A stretch of 7,365 bases of DNA. It comes from a virus (taxonomy: Duplodnaviria > Heunggongvirae > Uroviricota > Caudoviricetes). Below are positions 2,410 to 7,365 of this stretch, one piece after another (position 1 is the stretch's first letter; every line of letters begins with the position of its first letter). The stretch lies in IMG/VR virus record IMGVR_UViG_2734482780_000004. One strand, 5' to 3'. The position numbers were made by a program, and so were the translations under genes. The notes under the pieces were generated by a model that did no database searches, was not told where the DNA came from, and saw only the letters and a program-made list of their open reading frames with translations.

Positions 2410-2688
2410 TCAGCAGTTCGTCATCAGGGCGTCACCGCCACCACCGGTGGCCTTGCTGCGGCGCTGCTGGGTCAGACTTTCGGTGTGGTCGAGACTGTTT
2501 TTCAGGCGGGTGAATGCCTGGCTGGTTTCATCCGCCCTGTCAGTCACCTCCTGCTTAAGTGCGGAAAAGGCGGTTTCCATCTCAGCGAGGCGCTGCTCAG
2601 TGGCGCTCAGTTTTTCCTGCACATGTTCAGCAACAGCGGTCACCGCTTCATGCACATCATTCAGACGGGCGTCATCGCTGGCCTGTTT
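2410..2688 (-). pseudogene. O: Capsid scaffold gene O, 3' remnant only (last 92 codons plus stop)
   Basis: The C-terminal 92 aa of the 264-aa track ORF 2410..3204 ([92 protein letters not shown]) match the gpO C-terminus as I recall it. Upstream of about 2689 the same frame is unrelated to gpO and is antisense to a terminase-like coding sequence. No gpO N-terminal sequence is present anywhere in the window. Confidence 0.7.
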
Positions 2689-3180
2689 GCCCCCATCAGC
2701 CGTGTCGAAATGAGCCTGGAAGCGCGGCTGACCCAGCTCATCATCAAACCGCAGAAAACCGGCGGTGACTTCAAGGAAATTGACCTGCTGGGACGCCAGA
2801 TTGAACGACTGGCGCGGGTCAACCGCTACAGTCAGACCGGCAACGAGGCAGACCTTAATCCGAACGTCGCTAACCGCAACAAAGGCGGGCGTCGCAAACC
2901 GAAAAAGAATTTTTTCAGTGACGAAGCCATCGAAAAGCTGGAGCAGATTTTCTTTGAGCAGTCTTTCGACTATCAGTTGCACTGGTATCGCGCCGGGCTT
3001 GAGCACCGCATCCGCGATATACTGAAATCCCGCCAGATTGGCGCAACGTTTTATTTTTCCCGCGAGGCGCTGCTGCGCGCCCTGAAAACCGGCCATAACC
3101 AGATTTTTCTGTCGGCCAGTAAAACGCAGGCGTATGTGTTCCGCGAATACATCATCGCCTTTGCCCGTCTGGCTGAATGA
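2689..3180 (+). pseudogene. P: Terminase large (ATPase) subunit gene P, N-proximal fragment of about 160 codons, ended by an out-of-context stop
   Basis: Plus-strand frame reads [44 protein letters not shown] ... [58 protein letters not shown]. It contains a P-loop-like KSRQIGAT motif typical of phage terminase ATPase N-domains. The fragment is far too short for the roughly 590-aa protein I recall. The frame upstream of about 2689 is antisense to the O remnant. Confidence 0.6.
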
Positions 3181-3649
3181 GTCGGCCACGCTGTTCCGCC
3201 GCAAGTATTACGAAAACGGCGCTCATGCCGGATATATCATGTACGTCACCGATGCCGTGCAGGATCGCAACGATATCGAAATGCTTCGCGAAAACATGGT
3301 CAAGTCGAAAGGCCGCAACAACTTTAAAAATCTGTTTCTCTATGCCCCGCAGGGGAAAGCCGACGGCATTAAAATTATCCCGCTCAGTGAAGTGGCAACG
3401 AAGGACGATTTTTTTAATATCAAAAAAGCCAGCGCCGCTGACCTGCTGGACGCGCACCGCATCCCCTTTCAGTTGATGGGCGGCAAGCCGGAGAACGTCG
3501 GGTCGCTGGGTGATATTGAGAAAGTGGCAAAGGTCTTTGTCCGCAATGAGCTTATCCCGCTACAGGACAGAATTCGGGAAATAAACGGCTGGCTCGGTCA
3601 GGAGGTCATCCGCTTTAAAAACTACTCACTGGACACTGACAACGGCTGA
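3181..3649 (+). pseudogene. Q: Portal gene Q, 3' remnant (about 155 codons), out of frame with the P fragment
   Basis: Track ORF 3134..3649 ends ...HRIPFQLMGGKPENVGSLGDIEKVAKVFVRNELIPLQDRIREINGWLGQEVIRFKNYSLDTDNG, which I recognise as a P2-type portal C-terminus. It is followed by a terminator and then cos, as expected for the end of Q. The first roughly 16 codons of the track ORF ([16 protein letters not shown]) are the alternative frame of the P-fragment 3' end, so the real junction is near 3165-3185. It is far shorter than the roughly 344-aa portal I recall. Confidence 0.6.
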
Positions 3650-3654
3650 ACATC

Positions 3655-3676
3655 GCCGCCTGCGGGCGGCTTTTTT
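3655..3676 (+). terminator. Rho-independent terminator downstream of the Q remnant
   Basis: GCCGCC (3655-3660), loop TGCG, GGCGGC (3665-3670), then TTTTTT (3671-3676), starting 6 nt after the stop at 3647-3649. Confidence 0.7.
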
Positions 3677-3817
3677 ACACCCCGTCATCCCCCCTCACAC
3701 GCTCACCACCGCACAAAACACCCCGCAGACACACCAACGCCTCAACGGGCAGACTAAGCGCCTTCACGACGCGCTCAGACGCTGAAAAAATAAAATCAGC
3801 ACCACCGCCAGCGCGCA

Positions 3818-3836
3818 GTGCTTTCCCCGCCTCGCC
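3818..3836. other. cos: cos site: P2 19-nt cohesive-end sequence (cosN)
   Basis: GTGCTTTCCCCGCCTCGCC at 3818-3836 is the exact reverse complement of the P2 cohesive-end sequence GGCGAGGCGGGGAAAGCAC as I recall it. It lies about 170 bp beyond the portal gene stop in a C-rich non-coding stretch, the expected location. Confidence 0.75.
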
Positions 3837-3994
3837 CGCCCGCTTCATAGGTCGGTTTTAATGCAGGTGCATTACCACTTTTGAGGGGCGTCCGTCCTGA
3901 CGGTGCACAGCCAGAACATGCAACTTAGGCACATGCAAAACCACGCACATATTGCATGCACTGCTAAAAATAGGAGTATCGCAGAAAAAAACAC

Positions 3995-4024
3995 AAAAAA
4001 ACCGGCATTCATAGTGCCGGTTTT
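3995..4024. terminator. Bidirectional intrinsic terminator hairpin between cos and the cargo island
   Basis: A-tract 3995-4000, stem ACCGGCA (4001-4007), 7-nt loop TTCATAG, stem TGCCGGT (4015-4021), then T-run through 4024. The A-tract/T-tract symmetry allows termination on either strand. Confidence 0.55.
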
Positions 4025-4159
4025 GGCCAATTTTTAAAGTTGTCACTGGCCGCGCAATGCACCAATCTCACTGTTGACGCACATGTTGACAACAATTAGC
4101 AGAACAATCGTGTCCACACATTTTTACAAACGACACCTAACAGATTGATACAGATCATT

Positions 4160-4354
4160 TTATTTGTTCATTCGAATATAATTCAATAGCATCTTGATGA
4201 CCTGAGCGAGTTCTACGCTAGTTGCCTGCGCAACCAGCTTATCGGTATATATGTCAACTTCGCGTGAACTAAGATCATTGTTTTGTGCCAGAGTGGTAAT
4301 CTGCCTCGTCCAGCGTTTAACCCACTCATTATCAAAAGAAATGGAATTTTGCAT
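4160..4354 (-). CDS. Possible small protein (64 aa), head-to-head with the first cargo gene; coding status uncertain
   Basis: Track ORF MQNSISFDNEWVKRWTRQITTLAQNNDLSSREVDIYTDKLVAQATSVELAQVIKMLLNYIRMNK. Its ATG (4354..4352) shares the palindromic GCATGT with the plus-strand ATG at 4353. There is no convincing Shine-Dalgarno, and the region also carries plus-strand promoter-like hexamers. Confidence 0.25.
   Translation of the reverse strand: MQNSISFDNEWVKRWTRQITTLAQNNDLSSREVDIYTDKLVAQATSVELAQVIKMLLNYIRMNK
4177..4182 (+). promoter_or_regulatory. Candidate -10 element (TATAAT) for the cargo operon
   Basis: Perfect TATAAT at 4177-4182 in an AT-rich stretch about 170 nt upstream of the 4353 start. 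The -35 match is poor (ATCATT at 4154-4159). An alternative is TTTACA (4123-4128), 17-nt spacer, TGATAC. Confidence 0.25.
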
Positions 4355-4790
4355 GTCGAAAAATCTCGATTTATTTAACCAACAAACGGCGGAAATCTTT
4401 GCAGTACTATGGGAAAATTTTCCCGTACCACAGGTGATTAACTACGACAAATTTAACGCCGCGCTACCTGATGACTACTTTGACCAACTTAACTCACCAG
4501 AAATGAAAGCGTTAAATCAGTTGCGTAGTGTGGTTGAAGGTACATTCAATTTTCTCTGTGAAAACGGGTACATTCAGTACAACACAGACCATCAGTCGTA
4601 TTTTTACGATGTTCGACTTACTGAAAAAGCGCTCACAGTTCTTAACAAAAAACCCGAGGTGCTTGGTGGAAATGAAACGATGGGGGATAAAGTGATCAGT
4701 GCGGTGAAAGATGGGACTCCTGGGGTCATTGCCGGTGTGATTACAAATCTGCTGACTCACGGCGTTAATCTGGTTGCGTCAGTGTCATAG
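4353..4790 (+). CDS. Hypothetical protein, 145 aa, with a Gly-rich hydrophobic C-terminal tail
   Basis: ORF MSKNLDLFNQQTAEIFAVLWENFPVPQVINYDKFNAALPDDYFDQ ... AVKDGTPGVIAGVITNLLTHGVNLVASVS, ending at TAG 4788-4790. An alternative ATG at 4341 would add MEFC. The extended track start at 4251 is rejected because its N-terminal 30 codons are Cys/Arg-rich and antisense-like. Shine-Dalgarno is weak (GGAA 4343-4346). The gene is AT-rich, unlike the phage core. Confidence 0.6.
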   Translation: MSKNLDLFNQQTAEIFAVLWENFPVPQVINYDKFNAALPDDYFDQLNSPEMKALNQLRSVVEGTFNFLCENGYIQYNTDHQSYFYDVRLTEKALTVLNKKPEVLGGNETMGDKVISAVKDGTPGVIAGVITNLLTHGVNLVASVS

Positions 4791-4952
4791 CCAACGCCCC
4801 AAAGAGACTCATTGTCCCTCGTCACACTACTTGCTTTTAGTTCTGACGAGATTAAATCCGCTCACAGTGTTTACTGCGGAAAAGTTGCGTTATTATCCAT
4901 ATGATTTAACATCTTGGATTCATGTTAATTCACAGTTTAATAAGGATATGGA

Positions 4953-6044
4953 ATGGGTTACGAAATTGATTTTCTAGCTGTTGGCGAAAAAAAAAGCGGC
5001 GATGCGATCTGCATCAGATGGGGAAACCTACATGGTTCAAGAGATGAACAAAAAGTTGTCGTTATTGATGCAGGATATGCCAGCACCGGAGAACAAGTCA
5101 TTGAGCATATTGAAAAATACTACCGCACAAAAACTATTGACTTGCTTATCTCCACACACCCCGATGGTGACCACGTCGGTGGACTTACATCTGTTCTAGA
5201 AAATGCAGAAGTAAAAGAGTTTTGGATTCATAAGCCTTGGGAACATAATCAAGGTCTCGCAAGTGAGTTTGCAGATGGCAGGATAACTGATGCCAGTATT
5301 GCAAATCGAATGAAAGAAAACTTACAAAAAGCTTATGACGCTGTCAAATTAGCGGAAAAAAAAGGAATTGAAATAAAAGAGCCTTTTCAAGGAATGACCT
5401 GGGATAATGCTACTCTGGTTGTTATCGGGCCAACCCAATCTTACTATGAGACTCTAATACCTGATTTCGCAAGAATGCCCAAAAAAGCTGAGGATACAGC
5501 TGGATTTGAAGTACTAAAAGCAGTCTTTGAGTCTGTAGTTGAAAAAACGAAGAAATTTATTGATTACGTTGCTGAATGGTTTACTGATGAAGGTATTGAT
5601 AATGAAGATACCACCTCGGCACAAAATAACTCAAGTGTCATTTTGAAACTTGAGATTGATGGAAGAACGTTAGTGTTCACTGGCGATGCTGGTATAACAG
5701 CCTTAGATCAAGCCTCCCAATACATTAATAAAGAATCATTAAGATTCATTCAAGTACCTCATCATGGTAGCCGGAGAAATGTAGGCCCTGATGTTCTCGA
5801 TAAACTTGTTGGTAACATTGTAAATGAAGGCGAAAAAAGGGAGATAACCGCATTTGTATCATGTGCCCCAGGTTCAGATAAACATCCCCATCAAGCTGTA
5901 ATTAATGCCTTTACTCGACGAGGAGCGAAAGTTATCGCCACCGAGGGGCTTGGTAAGTACCATTTTTATAATGCTCCTGAAAGGGCAGGATGGAAAACAG
6001 CCACTCCACGATCATACATTAGTAACTATAGAACCGAAGAATAA
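4953..6044 (+). CDS. Metallo-beta-lactamase-fold metal-dependent hydrolase (ComEC-like subfamily by motifs), 363 aa; possible nuclease
   Basis: Strong Shine-Dalgarno AAGGA (4942-4946) 6 nt before ATG 4953. MBL-fold motif series in order: VVVIDAGY, STHPDGDHVGG (HxHxDH position, with Asp replacing the second His), VFTGDAG, VPHHGS. A roughly 140-aa acidic/Lys-rich insertion sits between the N- and C-terminal halves of the fold. Stop is TAA 6042-6044. Confidence 0.85.
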   Translation: MGYEIDFLAVGEKKSGDAICIRWGNLHGSRDEQKVVVIDAGYASTGEQVIEHIEKYYRTKTIDLLISTHPDGDHVGGLTSVLENAEVKEFWIHKPWEHNQGLASEFADGRITDASIANRMKENLQKAYDAVKLAEKKGIEIKEPFQGMTWDNATLVVIGPTQSYYETLIPDFARMPKKAEDTAGFEVLKAVFESVVEKTKKFIDYVAEWFTDEGIDNEDTTSAQNNSSVILKLEIDGRTLVFTGDAGITALDQASQYINKESLRFIQVPHHGSRRNVGPDVLDKLVGNIVNEGEKREITAFVSCAPGSDKHPHQAVINAFTRRGAKVIATEGLGKYHFYNAPERAGWKTATPRSYISNYRTEE

Positions 6045-6049
6045 TTCAA

Positions 6050-6069
6050 AAGCTGCCTTACGGCAGCTT
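6050..6069. terminator. Hairpin between the convergent hydrolase and membrane-protein genes
   Basis: AAGCTGCC (6050-6057), loop TTAC, GGCAGCTT (6062-6069), starting 6 nt after the hydrolase stop and overlapping the last codons of the minus-strand gene. There is no long T-run on either side, so terminator function is inferred. Confidence 0.45.
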
Positions 6070-6690
6070 ATTATTAACAGCATTTACTCTATATATTATG
6101 TATCTTATTTGTTTAATATATGAGACAACAAACAAAATAGCAAAAACCGCCAACGTTATTTTAGATAAGCCATATGTCTCGCCAGTAAACCGTCCTACAA
6201 CGCACAATGTCGCCAAAAGAATAATTGACATTGAAAATATCGTCCTATACATATTCGCAATCTCTTGCAAAGTTTCAATTTTTCCATCCACACCACATGC
6301 TGACACATAATCTTTATAAGGAGCAAACTTAATCAAACGCGATAGTTTTAAAAAAGGTTCCAATACGATAGAACCAATCCGGCCAATGACTAAGCCAACA
6401 AAATAATAGAGGACAACATTTTTTATTAAATCATCGCCAGATAAAACGATATTCGTCATTCTCTCAAGAAGATAAATAAAAAGAGCACCTGGAAAAAGAT
6501 TATTAAATATATTATATGACGATATTTTTTCCCATAAACCATCCATACCAATCACCTTACTACAGTTTAAATCAGAGATCATTTTCATTGAAAAATACAT
6601 ATATAGCAAGAAATCTATAGCGATTCTGACATCCAACCTGAGTCTATCAGTAGTTAATCTCTTCAGAAAAGAGTGCATAACGAAAACCAA
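6058..6690 (-). CDS. Multi-pass membrane protein (about 4 predicted TM helices), 162-210 aa depending on start
   Basis: Track ORF with four hydrophobic segments: LFPGALFIYLL, VVLYYFVGLVIGRIGSIVL, IFSMSIILLATLCVVGRF, ITLAVFAILFVVSYI. The track start at 6690 is TTG; the first ATG is at 6678 with no Shine-Dalgarno. The ATG at 6546 (MDGLWEK) has a good AGGTGAT Shine-Dalgarno (6557-6551). The frame is open across 48 AT-rich codons upstream of 6546, which mildly favours the longer form. Confidence 0.6.
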   Translation of the reverse strand: MVFVMHSFLKRLTTDRLRLDVRIAIDFLLYMYFSMKMISDLNCSKVIGMDGLWEKISSYNIFNNLFPGALFIYLLERMTNIVLSGDDLIKNVVLYYFVGLVIGRIGSIVLEPFLKLSRLIKFAPYKDYVSACGVDGKIETLQEIANMYRTIFSMSIILLATLCVVGRFTGETYGLSKITLAVFAILFVVSYIKQIRYIIYRVNAVNNKLP

Positions 6691-6794
6691 TCACAGGAAA
6701 TCGGCTATGTAAATTTTCGACCGTCGTATATCAATGGTACACCACGCCCCCCACGCTTACATTACTTCTGTGTGATGCCATACTGAGCGAGGTC

Positions 6795-6821
6795 TATATA
6801 AATACTAGTAATTTATCACAA
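6795..6821 (-). promoter_or_regulatory. Candidate sigma70 promoter for the membrane-protein gene
   Basis: On the minus strand, TTGTGA (6821..6816), a 15-nt spacer, then TATATA (6800..6795). The alternative is a 17-nt spacer with TATAGA. It lies about 100 nt upstream of the ORF start. Confidence 0.3.
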
Positions 6822-6840
6822 ACCTGATTTGATCAGCCTC

Positions 6841-6985
6841 GCGATGGCACAAATGCAAGCGGTTTTAACGGACTTCCGTTTCTTTGCTGACGATTTGGTA
6901 TTCTCAGACCGTGTTTTAATGCACCTCTGAGCGCCCTCACGACCGCCGGATCATTCCATTCGATTACCCGTCATCAAATTGATTC
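6841..6985. repeat. Direct repeat copy 1: degenerate, frameshifted duplicate of part of the flanking gene
   Basis: Positions 6859-6985 align with 7191-7320 at about 90% identity by hand alignment (gcggttttaacggacttccgtttctttgctgacgatttgg...). Weaker similarity extends to about 6841 and 7172. In a shifted minus-strand frame copy 1 encodes RVIEWNDPAVVRALRGALKHGLRIPNRQQRNGSPLKPLAFVPSRG, closed immediately upstream by stop codons. Confidence 0.8.
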
Positions 6986-7365
6986 CACTCTGTTATAGTT
7001 GAATATCCCGGCCACTCATCAGCGACCGGATACGTGAATTTTTTCCCGTCATAATTTACGGTTGCCCCACGCGCCAGCGACTCAAGCTCCCATCGCTGAG
7101 GTCTGATACCGTTCTGAGCAAGATCAACGCGAATACGGGTAATTTGCAATCGCTCCGACCTGGTCAGCCTGGCTGATGGCGCTATTTCATGCGGTTTTAA
7201 CGGACTTCCGTTTCTTTGCTGACGATTTGGTGTTCTCAGTCCGCATTTTAATGCACCTCTGAGCGCCCTCACAACCTCCGGGTCACTCCATTCGATAACA
7301 CCGTCATCAACCAGATTAAGCACTGCTGCGGCGTGTTCAGAAGGTGTGGGAGCCGGTAACGAAGT
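6964..7365 (-). CDS. Phage protein of unknown identity, 3' part only (at least 133 codons; N-terminus beyond window end)
   Basis: The minus-strand frame is open from the window end (TSLPAPTPSEHAAAV, then LNLVDDGVIEWSDPEVVRALRGALKCGLRTPNRQQRNGSPLKPHEIAPSA ... TITEWNQFDDG) to stop TAA at 6966..6964. The track start at 7323 is only an internal GTG. Orientation and position fit the distal end of the P2 early/replication operon, but I cannot assign it to gene A or a neighbour from memory. Confidence 0.5.
   Translation of the reverse strand, partial: TSLPAPTPSEHAAAVLNLVDDGVIEWSDPEVVRALRGALKCGLRTPNRQQRNGSPLKPHEIAPSARLTRSERLQITRIRVDLAQNGIRPQRWELESLARGATVNYDGKKFTYPVADEWPGYSTITEWNQFDDG
7172..7320. repeat. 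Direct repeat copy 2: in-frame coding copy inside the flanking gene
   Basis: Partner of the 6841-6985 repeat. It encodes residues NLVDDGVIEWSDPEVVRALRGALKCGLRTPNRQQRNGSPLKPHEIAPSA of the minus-strand gene. Confidence 0.8.

Follow-up and report, generated by a model that had tools for sequence, protein, structure and literature searches.

The window, by which we mean the whole stretch of 7,365 nucleotides that was analysed, belongs to the IMG/VR virus record IMGVR_UViG_2734482780_000004 (Caudoviricetes). Between the genes gpA and gpQ of the P2-like Escherichia coli prophage in this window lie two genes, one for a soluble protein with a metallo-beta-lactamase (MBL) fold and one for a small membrane protein, which we call the partner. 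The features of this gene pair are listed here in window coordinates.

4942..4946, + strand: ribosome-binding site AAGGA, read from the sequence, 6 nt 5' of the ATG of the MBL gene
4953..6044, + strand: open reading frame of the MBL gene, encoding a soluble ComEC-like MBL-fold metallo-nuclease (putative nuclease) of 363 amino acids, PADLOC family PDC-M48B
5055..5078, + strand: motif 1, VVVIDAGY, residues 35-42, with D39 present in 84/84 family representatives
5154..5174, + strand: motif 2, THPDGDH, residues 68-74, predicted metal site with H69, D71, D73 and H74 (ComEC H598, D600, D602 and H603)
5232..5606, + strand: family-specific middle region, residues 94-218, about 74 residues beyond the ComEC equivalent (alignment and model)
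5466..5567, + strand: hypervariable loop, residues ~172-205, predicted to be disordered, a candidate gating loop (predicted local distance difference test (pLDDT), conservation and analogy to gated pro-nucleases)
5679..5693, + strand: motif 4, TGDAG, residues 243-247, with D245 (ComEC D700)
5754..5771, + strand: motif 5, VPHHGS, residues 268-273, with H270 and S273 (substrate contacts H725 and S728 in ComEC) and the invariant H271
6050..6069, both strands: perfect 8-bp GC-rich hairpin between the convergent genes, with the partner stop codon in its loop
6058..6546, - strand: four-helix membrane partner gene, 162 amino acids, PADLOC family PDC-M48A

The MBL protein starts with M-G-Y-E, and this N-terminus was found in all homologues aligned (n=50). 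In these 50 homologues, which were 49-80% identical, residues D39, H69, D71, D73, H74, D245, H270, H271 and S273 were invariant. The Pfam profile Lactamase_B matched the protein with 46.3 bits at a cutoff of 22.7. Because of this score and the invariance across the 50 homologues the motifs were judged not to be a product of chance. All ordered metal motifs of the MBL fold are present, namely the Asp, H-x-[HD]-x-D-H, the bridging Asp and the C-terminal His. Conservation was also determined in a wider set of 84 representatives with 33-49% identity, taken from a library of 1.84 billion proteins. Here H69, H74 and H271 were each retained in 84/84 sequences, D245 in 83/84, D73 in 82/84, H270 in 81/84 and S273 in 80/84. 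Position 71 was Asp in 73/84 and His in 11/84 representatives. Judged by these sequences, Asp is the usual state of this branch at position 71 and is exchangeable with the canonical His.

An AlphaFold2 model of the MBL protein was built on the alignment of the 50 homologues. The model had a mean pLDDT of 90.3 and a predicted template modelling score of 0.89, and pLDDT values below 50 were confined to residues 182-196. [quoted passage not shown] The ComEC segments STHPDADHIGG and VPHHGSR aligned with the motifs of the MBL protein (9ic4, 30bt). In the HMMER alignment ComEC H598, D600, D602, H603, D700, H725 and S728 corresponded to H69, D71, D73, H74, D245, H270 and S273. Thus, all residues of ComEC that bind the two metals or contact the substrate are present and conserved in the MBL protein. 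An earlier reading of the DNA without database searches, here called the sequence-only reading, had proposed four motifs, an MBL fold and a place in the ComEC/Rec2-type branch. All four motifs were located at their proposed positions in the 363-residue product, the profile search and the predicted structure both gave the alpha-beta/beta-alpha MBL sandwich, and the ComEC domain as top match agrees with the proposed branch. That reading had also treated H-x-D-x-D-H as an oddity of this protein. This does not hold, since ComEC itself carries Asp at this position, as do most of the family representatives.

For ComEC the motif has been described as 'H598-X-D600-X-D602-H603', and the domain binds two Mn2+ ions (PMC12455585). 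Its nuclease domain is a Mn2+-dependent DNA endonuclease and 5'-to-3' exonuclease. The variants H598A, D602A, H603A and D700A were inactive, and D600A had about 5-fold lower activity. H725 and S728 are putative DNA-binding residues, and S728A slowed the reaction about 3-fold (PMC12455585). With ~750-800 amino acids, ComEC is a membrane protein that has an OB fold, a DNA channel and an extracytoplasmic nuclease domain. In contrast, the MBL protein is free-standing and soluble, with 363 amino acids and neither a signal peptide nor a hydrophobic segment. It also differs from ComEC by the ~74 extra residues in its middle and by an additional C-terminal tail, and its membrane component is encoded by a separate gene, for which no match to any family including the ComEC channel domain was detected. 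Taken together, the alignments and the predicted structure show a soluble protein of the ComEC-type fold with an intact, conserved binuclear site.

Several database names point to other functions. The PGAP label is 'ComEC/Rec2 family competence protein', the label in NC_049389 and phrog_7043 is 'tail protein', and there were weak matches to bla models. Taken at face value, these names would make the protein a competence protein of the ComEC/Rec2 family, a metallo-beta-lactamase that hydrolyses antibiotics or a tail protein of a phage. The competence model TIGR00361 scored 49.2 bits against a cutoff of 190.05 and aligned solely over model positions 558-660 of 663. A whole ComEC does not fit a protein of 363 residues without membrane channel or OB domain, whose Pfam matches were of the Lactamase_B type only. 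For the class B beta-lactamases, bla_class_B_core gave 26.8 bits against a cutoff of 100 and the subclass models 18-19 against 200-240. Finally, the MBL gene lies in a cargo hotspot away from the tail genes, and its homologues are mostly not from phages. We consider the probability that any of these names is correct to be close to nil.

The middle of the protein sets this family apart from ComEC. The alignment to 9ic4 breaks at residue 86 and restarts at residue 219, which are ComEC positions 84 and 143, and the net extra material is thus about 74 residues. In the model the middle region comprised a helical hairpin (113-136), core strands in region 140-159 (at 140-142 and 155-159), a helix (162-171) and a further strand at 202-206. 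The segment 93-145 had a nearly constant length across the family, with a median of 52 and a standard deviation of 1.6, and the length of segment 160-225 ranged from 51 to 76 residues. The least conserved stretch of the whole protein was block 181-200 (0.08-0.24), which coincides with the low pLDDT values. In longer homologues the variable loop was the site of growth and was expanded by low-complexity sequence. N-terminal extensions in longer homologues, which were considered as membrane-anchored fusions, look like mis-called starts and not like transmembrane segments.

The sequence-only reading had described residues 95-235 as a charged insertion of about 140 residues. Extra material is indeed present, but it amounts to about half that size. 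The content of D, E, K and R was 29% in residues 95-235 compared to 27% across the whole protein. The same stretch also holds core strands and a conserved T-S-A-x-N-N-S-S loop common to ComEC, is well ordered in the model apart from residues 182-196, and contains conserved residues including W96, DGR 108-110, P144, F145 and P160.

The partner gene is convergent (tail-to-tail) with the MBL gene at a distance of 13 nt. Its start was assigned to the ATG at 6546, which is preceded by AAGGTG, and not to the TTG at 6690; homologues and PGAP agree with this start. The hairpin between the two genes has a calculated dG of about -14 kcal/mol with z-values of -5.6 (+ strand) and -4.2 (- strand) and may be a bidirectional terminator. 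Sequence analysis of the partner gave 3-4 hydrophobic helices, and its model consisted of four long helices (pLDDT 89.4). Sharply conserved polar motifs were EKISSYNIFNxLFPG, YYFVGLxISRIGS, NNMYRT and SYxKQ. The polar residues K7, S9, S10, R56, S59, R101, K145 and Q146, which lie in or beside the helices, were invariant. According to the positive-inside rule we infer that the conserved polar motifs face the cytoplasm. A structure search with the partner model returned no specific fold match. NCBI labels the partner 'phosphohistidine phosphatase', which looks unfounded.

The pairing of the two genes was surveyed in two collections, 80 loci (one genome per species; the source was at least 534 relatives across many phyla) and 41 viral contigs of IMG/VR. 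A membrane partner adjoined the MBL gene in 112/121 of these independent loci, which come from many phyla and from phages. In the species loci the partner was adjacent in 73/80 cases, with 40 partners of a family we call TM-X, 25 of a family TM-Y and 8 of the M48A type found in the window. In the viral contigs it was adjacent in 39/41 cases, here with 25 M48A, 12 TM-X and 2 TM-Y partners. The distance between the genes in the species loci was mostly below 30 nt, or the genes overlapped. Thus, the MBL gene is almost always adjacent to a gene for a small multi-helix membrane protein. The MBL protein is thus no lone enzyme; the sequence-only reading overlooked that it belongs to a conserved two-gene module (PDC-M48) in the P2 anti-phage hotspot.

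The TM-X proteins have ~240 and the TM-Y proteins ~212 amino acids; the two families were recorded at loci L014 and L003 plus 63 genome loci and at loci L098-L124. Neither had a match in PADLOC, Pfam or NCBIfam. Alignment of TM-X with TM-Y by hhalign gave a probability of 49% (E 2.6e-5), which is suggestive only, and the two may be distantly related. For M48A against TM-X or TM-Y the hhalign probability was below 1%, and no relation was detectable. All three share a plan in which a soluble middle lies between N-terminal and C-terminal helices. In a neighbour-joining tree of the MBL proteins, which was calculated without support values, the three partner types were interspersed, which indicates repeated exchange of the partner. 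The MBL protein of the window grouped with TM-Y-linked proteins (~50% identity), whereas other M48A-linked MBL proteins were just 32-42% identical to it.

No third gene was conserved: when 130 flanking open reading frames were compared to PADLOC and Pfam, no family occurred in more than 4 loci. The flanking frames included scattered methyltransferases, HsdM, ResIII, SMC-like ATPases, MADS genes and recombinases. Beside the pair, a second diverged ComEC-like MBL paralogue was observed within ~0.5-3.5 kb (mostly below 1 kb) in 20/80 species loci, among them L015, L022, L023, L026, L028, L038, L062, L065, L067, L073, L074 and L077. It matches the PADLOC PDC-M48B model PDLC04673, and the order is mostly MBL - TM-X - MBL2.

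Both genes of the window matched models of the defence database PADLOC. The MBL protein matched the PDC-M48B model PDLC04676 with 1.1e-100 (residues 3-357 on model positions 5-353 of 357), and the partner matched the PDC-M48A model PDLC04670 over its full length with 1.5e-50. Consequently, the locus is an instance of PDC-M48, an already catalogued computational candidate. The PDCs are 145 candidates which were picked because instances of them lie inside BREX, DISARM or type I restriction-modification loci (10.1101/2024.01.29.577857). PDC-M48 has no described mechanism and covers one of the three partner families seen here, without TM-X and TM-Y.

Further PADLOC models matched by the MBL protein belong to known defence systems. 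An MBL model labelled LmuA was matched with 1.6e-29 (residues 13-285 on model positions 10-278), RTasMBL with 3.9e-20 and Avs1a with 2.5e-14. Membership in these systems was rejected in each case. The NCBIfam equivalog for Avs1a gave 62.1 bits at a cutoff of 420, and the similarity to Avs1a was limited to the core motifs. For Lamassu, just the MBL model labelled LmuA was matched, and the window contains neither the SMC-like ATPase LmuB nor LmuC. DRT membership was rejected despite the RTasMBL match, on cutoff or missing partner genes, and the 6A-MBL system (NF058524) with 33.9 bits at a cutoff of 220.

The ComEC-like MBL proteins of Hachiman, AVAST and canu are 'gated' pro-nucleases, and the same has been proposed for Lamassu (PMC12799240, PMC12642450). 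In these proteins insertions absent from ComEC obstruct the active site, and a co-encoded protease cuts around I134 and I234 (PMC12799240, PMC12642450). The cut VcMBL cleaves double-stranded DNA in a Zn2+-dependent manner with D276 as catalytic residue (PMC12799240). Like the MBL protein of the window, the gated enzymes (HamM, Avs1a, CanC and the Lamassu- and DRT-linked proteins) stand alone; they are DNase effectors of ~350-400 amino acids with insertions between the two halves of the fold. Their insertions include disordered loops near the active site; HamM, Avs1a and CanC are marked by two disordered insertions above it, each with a conserved residue at the cut site. The MBL protein has one disordered hypervariable loop (182-196), and its second extra element has a defined structure and a constant length. 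If D276 of VcMBL is equated with D245 by position, not by alignment, the cut sites would fall at ~103 and ~203 and flank the middle region, with the second site within the disordered loop.

For the gated enzymes the constant companion is a protease of the trypsin-, caspase- or subtilisin-like kind that cuts two loops, whereas the near-constant neighbour of the MBL gene is a small membrane protein. No protease domain was found in the open reading frames of the window, no protease recurred among the 130 homologue neighbours, and none was conserved in the 121 loci. Therefore, the MBL protein stands outside the protease-gated class. In an alternative reading the roles are reversed: the membrane protein would be the killer, acting as a pore or depolariser, and the sensor or regulator would be the MBL protein, or else the partner would be an intramembrane protease that cleaves the MBL pro-enzyme. 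Small transmembrane proteins are often proposed as defence effectors, the partner has invariant polar residues in or beside its helices, and proteolysis is the usual way in which defence MBL proteins of this branch are activated. Nevertheless, we give this alternative little probability.

The genomic setting of the pair was compared to that of P2-like phages. The left half of the window consists of P2-type genes for the small terminase, major capsid, scaffold, large terminase and portal proteins. The borders of the interval that contains the pair are the following.

3134..3649, + strand: C-terminal remnant of the P2 portal gene gpQ, one hotspot border
6964..7365, - strand: 3' end of the P2 replication endonuclease gene gpA, the other hotspot border

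Across ~3750-6900 the G+C content drops from ~0.55 to 0.34-0.42. The interval between gpA and gpQ is a documented defence hotspot of P2-like phages. In P2 this slot is occupied by old and tin, and protection against phages has been shown for several of its cassettes (PMC9122126). The 3.35-kb island of the window was present at 99.3-99.8% identity in 23/5,426 complete E. coli genomes. A version with 73% identity was found at the same location in the isolated P2-like phages P24E6b, 12W, D8 and 11W. Compared to the closely related prophage of E. coli ETEC6 (locus L001), the window lacks L001 positions 2447-3350 and 3841-5519, with junctions at 2687-2690 and 3169-3176. The missing stretches take away the 5' portions of the scaffold gene gpO and the portal gene gpQ, as well as the start and the larger part of the terminase gene gpP. 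As one piece, the junctions occurred in 0/5,426 complete E. coli genomes, which leaves two possibilities, decay specific to this strain or an artefact of the assembly.

An alternative is that the pair serves the phage and not the defence of the host. The nuclease might be tethered to the membrane and break down DNA of the host or of competitors in the lytic phase; other options are a superinfection exclusion system acting at DNA entry and an addiction module, similar to a toxin with its antidote, that stabilises the prophage. The module occurs in functional P2-like phages and in the 41 viral contigs, and the hotspot also houses non-defence cargo such as partition systems and toxins (PMC9122126). 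Moreover, the cargo is kept at 99.6% identity in a prophage without packaging genes. However, most family members are chromosomal, from many phyla and in highly variable contexts, the PADLOC family was derived from instances embedded in BREX, DISARM or restriction-modification loci, and superinfection exclusion is itself a form of defence. A role for the benefit of the phage is unlikely in our view.

The preferred explanation is that the two genes form a cargo module which probably acts as an anti-phage system and consists of a binuclear (Mn2+ or Zn2+) DNase and a membrane partner. Through its conserved cytoplasmic face the partner would anchor the nuclease at the inner membrane or regulate it there, and phage infection would license the nuclease to destroy DNA. 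Its target could be the incoming phage DNA or, in an abortive-infection mode, all DNA. By analogy to the gating insertions of HamM and Avs1a, which are similarly placed, the extra middle region, above all the variable loop at ~172-205, may be autoinhibitory, and this inhibition might be relieved by the membrane partner instead of a protease. A small inner-membrane component coupled to a cytoplasmic DNA-acting protein is also found in Kiwa (KwaAB) and Zorya. The likeness of these systems to the pair is one of logic only, with no relationship in sequence or fold.

A more far-reaching and tentative version of this explanation, which we regard as possible but doubtful, is a protease-independent, membrane-gated ComEC-like defence pro-DNase that is held at the membrane by a small sensor of the inner membrane. 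There would be at least three families of this sensor, each able to replace the others. Perturbation of the envelope by the phage, or injection of its DNA, would then release or activate the cytoplasmic pro-DNase. By analogy, such a module might be likened to a ComEC that is split and turned inside-out and that destroys incoming DNA rather than importing it. The same version, held with equal reserve, would make the membrane-gated module widespread in bacterial phyla and temperate phages.

Several points weigh against a defence DNase controlled by its membrane partner. At its start the extra region has an ordered structure and is conserved, unlike a disordered gate, and since no protease was found the gating analogy has no known activator. 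Among the immediate neighbours in the 80 genomes, which are heterogeneous, a minority is recognisable as defence genes. With the missing parts of gpO, gpP and gpQ the prophage of the window is defective. A literature search returned no experimental study of PDC-M48, of its family or of MBL-plus-transmembrane defence, and so defence, the DNA substrate and the interaction with the partner are all inferred. In addition, the second-best structural match of the MBL protein was the phosphorylcholine esterase Pce, and a substrate other than nucleic acid is thus conceivable. As an alternative, the protein could be a non-DNA phosphodiesterase which acts on a lipid or teichoic-acid-like head group presented by the partner (Pce-like) or on a cyclic-nucleotide immune signal (anti-defence, Apyc1-like). 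Pce/CbpE (1wra, 2bib), a cell-wall enzyme that Streptococcus pneumoniae secretes, has choline-binding repeats and teichoic acid as substrate, and no sequence match between it and the MBL protein was detectable. We consider this activity quite improbable and favour the DNase with its membrane partner.

The island contains a second pair of genes.

4160-4354, - strand: gene for a protein of 64 amino acids, phrog_2454
4353-4790, + strand: gene for a protein of 145 amino acids, phrog_2266

These genes are divergent with overlapping start codons and belong to no PADLOC, Pfam or NCBIfam family. In P2-like phages of Klebsiella and in the phage Midge the pair borders on other cargo, and the Midge annotation reports an HHpred similarity of the 145-residue protein to T7 gp5.5/5.7. 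They were considered as part of the MBL module and rejected, as they are present without the MBL pair in other P2-like phages and have no PADLOC match. The two genes appear to be a separate module. A direct repeat of 125 nt with 89% identity was observed at 6843-6967 and 7175-7299. It is a second, diverged copy of the gpA 3' end just past the gpA stop codon at the island edge and looks like the footprint of a recombinational cassette exchange between P2-like phages. Terminator-like hairpins were seen at 3653-3670 after the portal remnant (+ strand) and at 3998-4024 downstream of the 64-residue gene (- strand). The stretch 3650-3850 next to the portal gene is C-rich, and the P2 cos region is expected there.

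As a correction to the annotation of the two genes, the names 'ComEC/Rec2 family competence protein', 'phosphohistidine phosphatase' and 'tail protein' are all unsupported here. Neither the H-x-D-x-D-H motif nor the insertion is unusual in this branch of MBL proteins. The locus is of interest for a relative of the gated defence nucleases that has no protease and is probably coupled to the membrane, with a diversity of partners that is absent from the databases searched (PADLOC, Pfam, NCBIfam). ComEC-like DNases are known to be controlled in three ways, by proteases of the trypsin, caspase and subtilisin type. Should the pair work as a defence system, control by a membrane partner would be a fourth. 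In that case E. coli would offer a mechanistic model for what is now a purely computational PADLOC candidate, carried on an easily cloned mobile P2 cassette.

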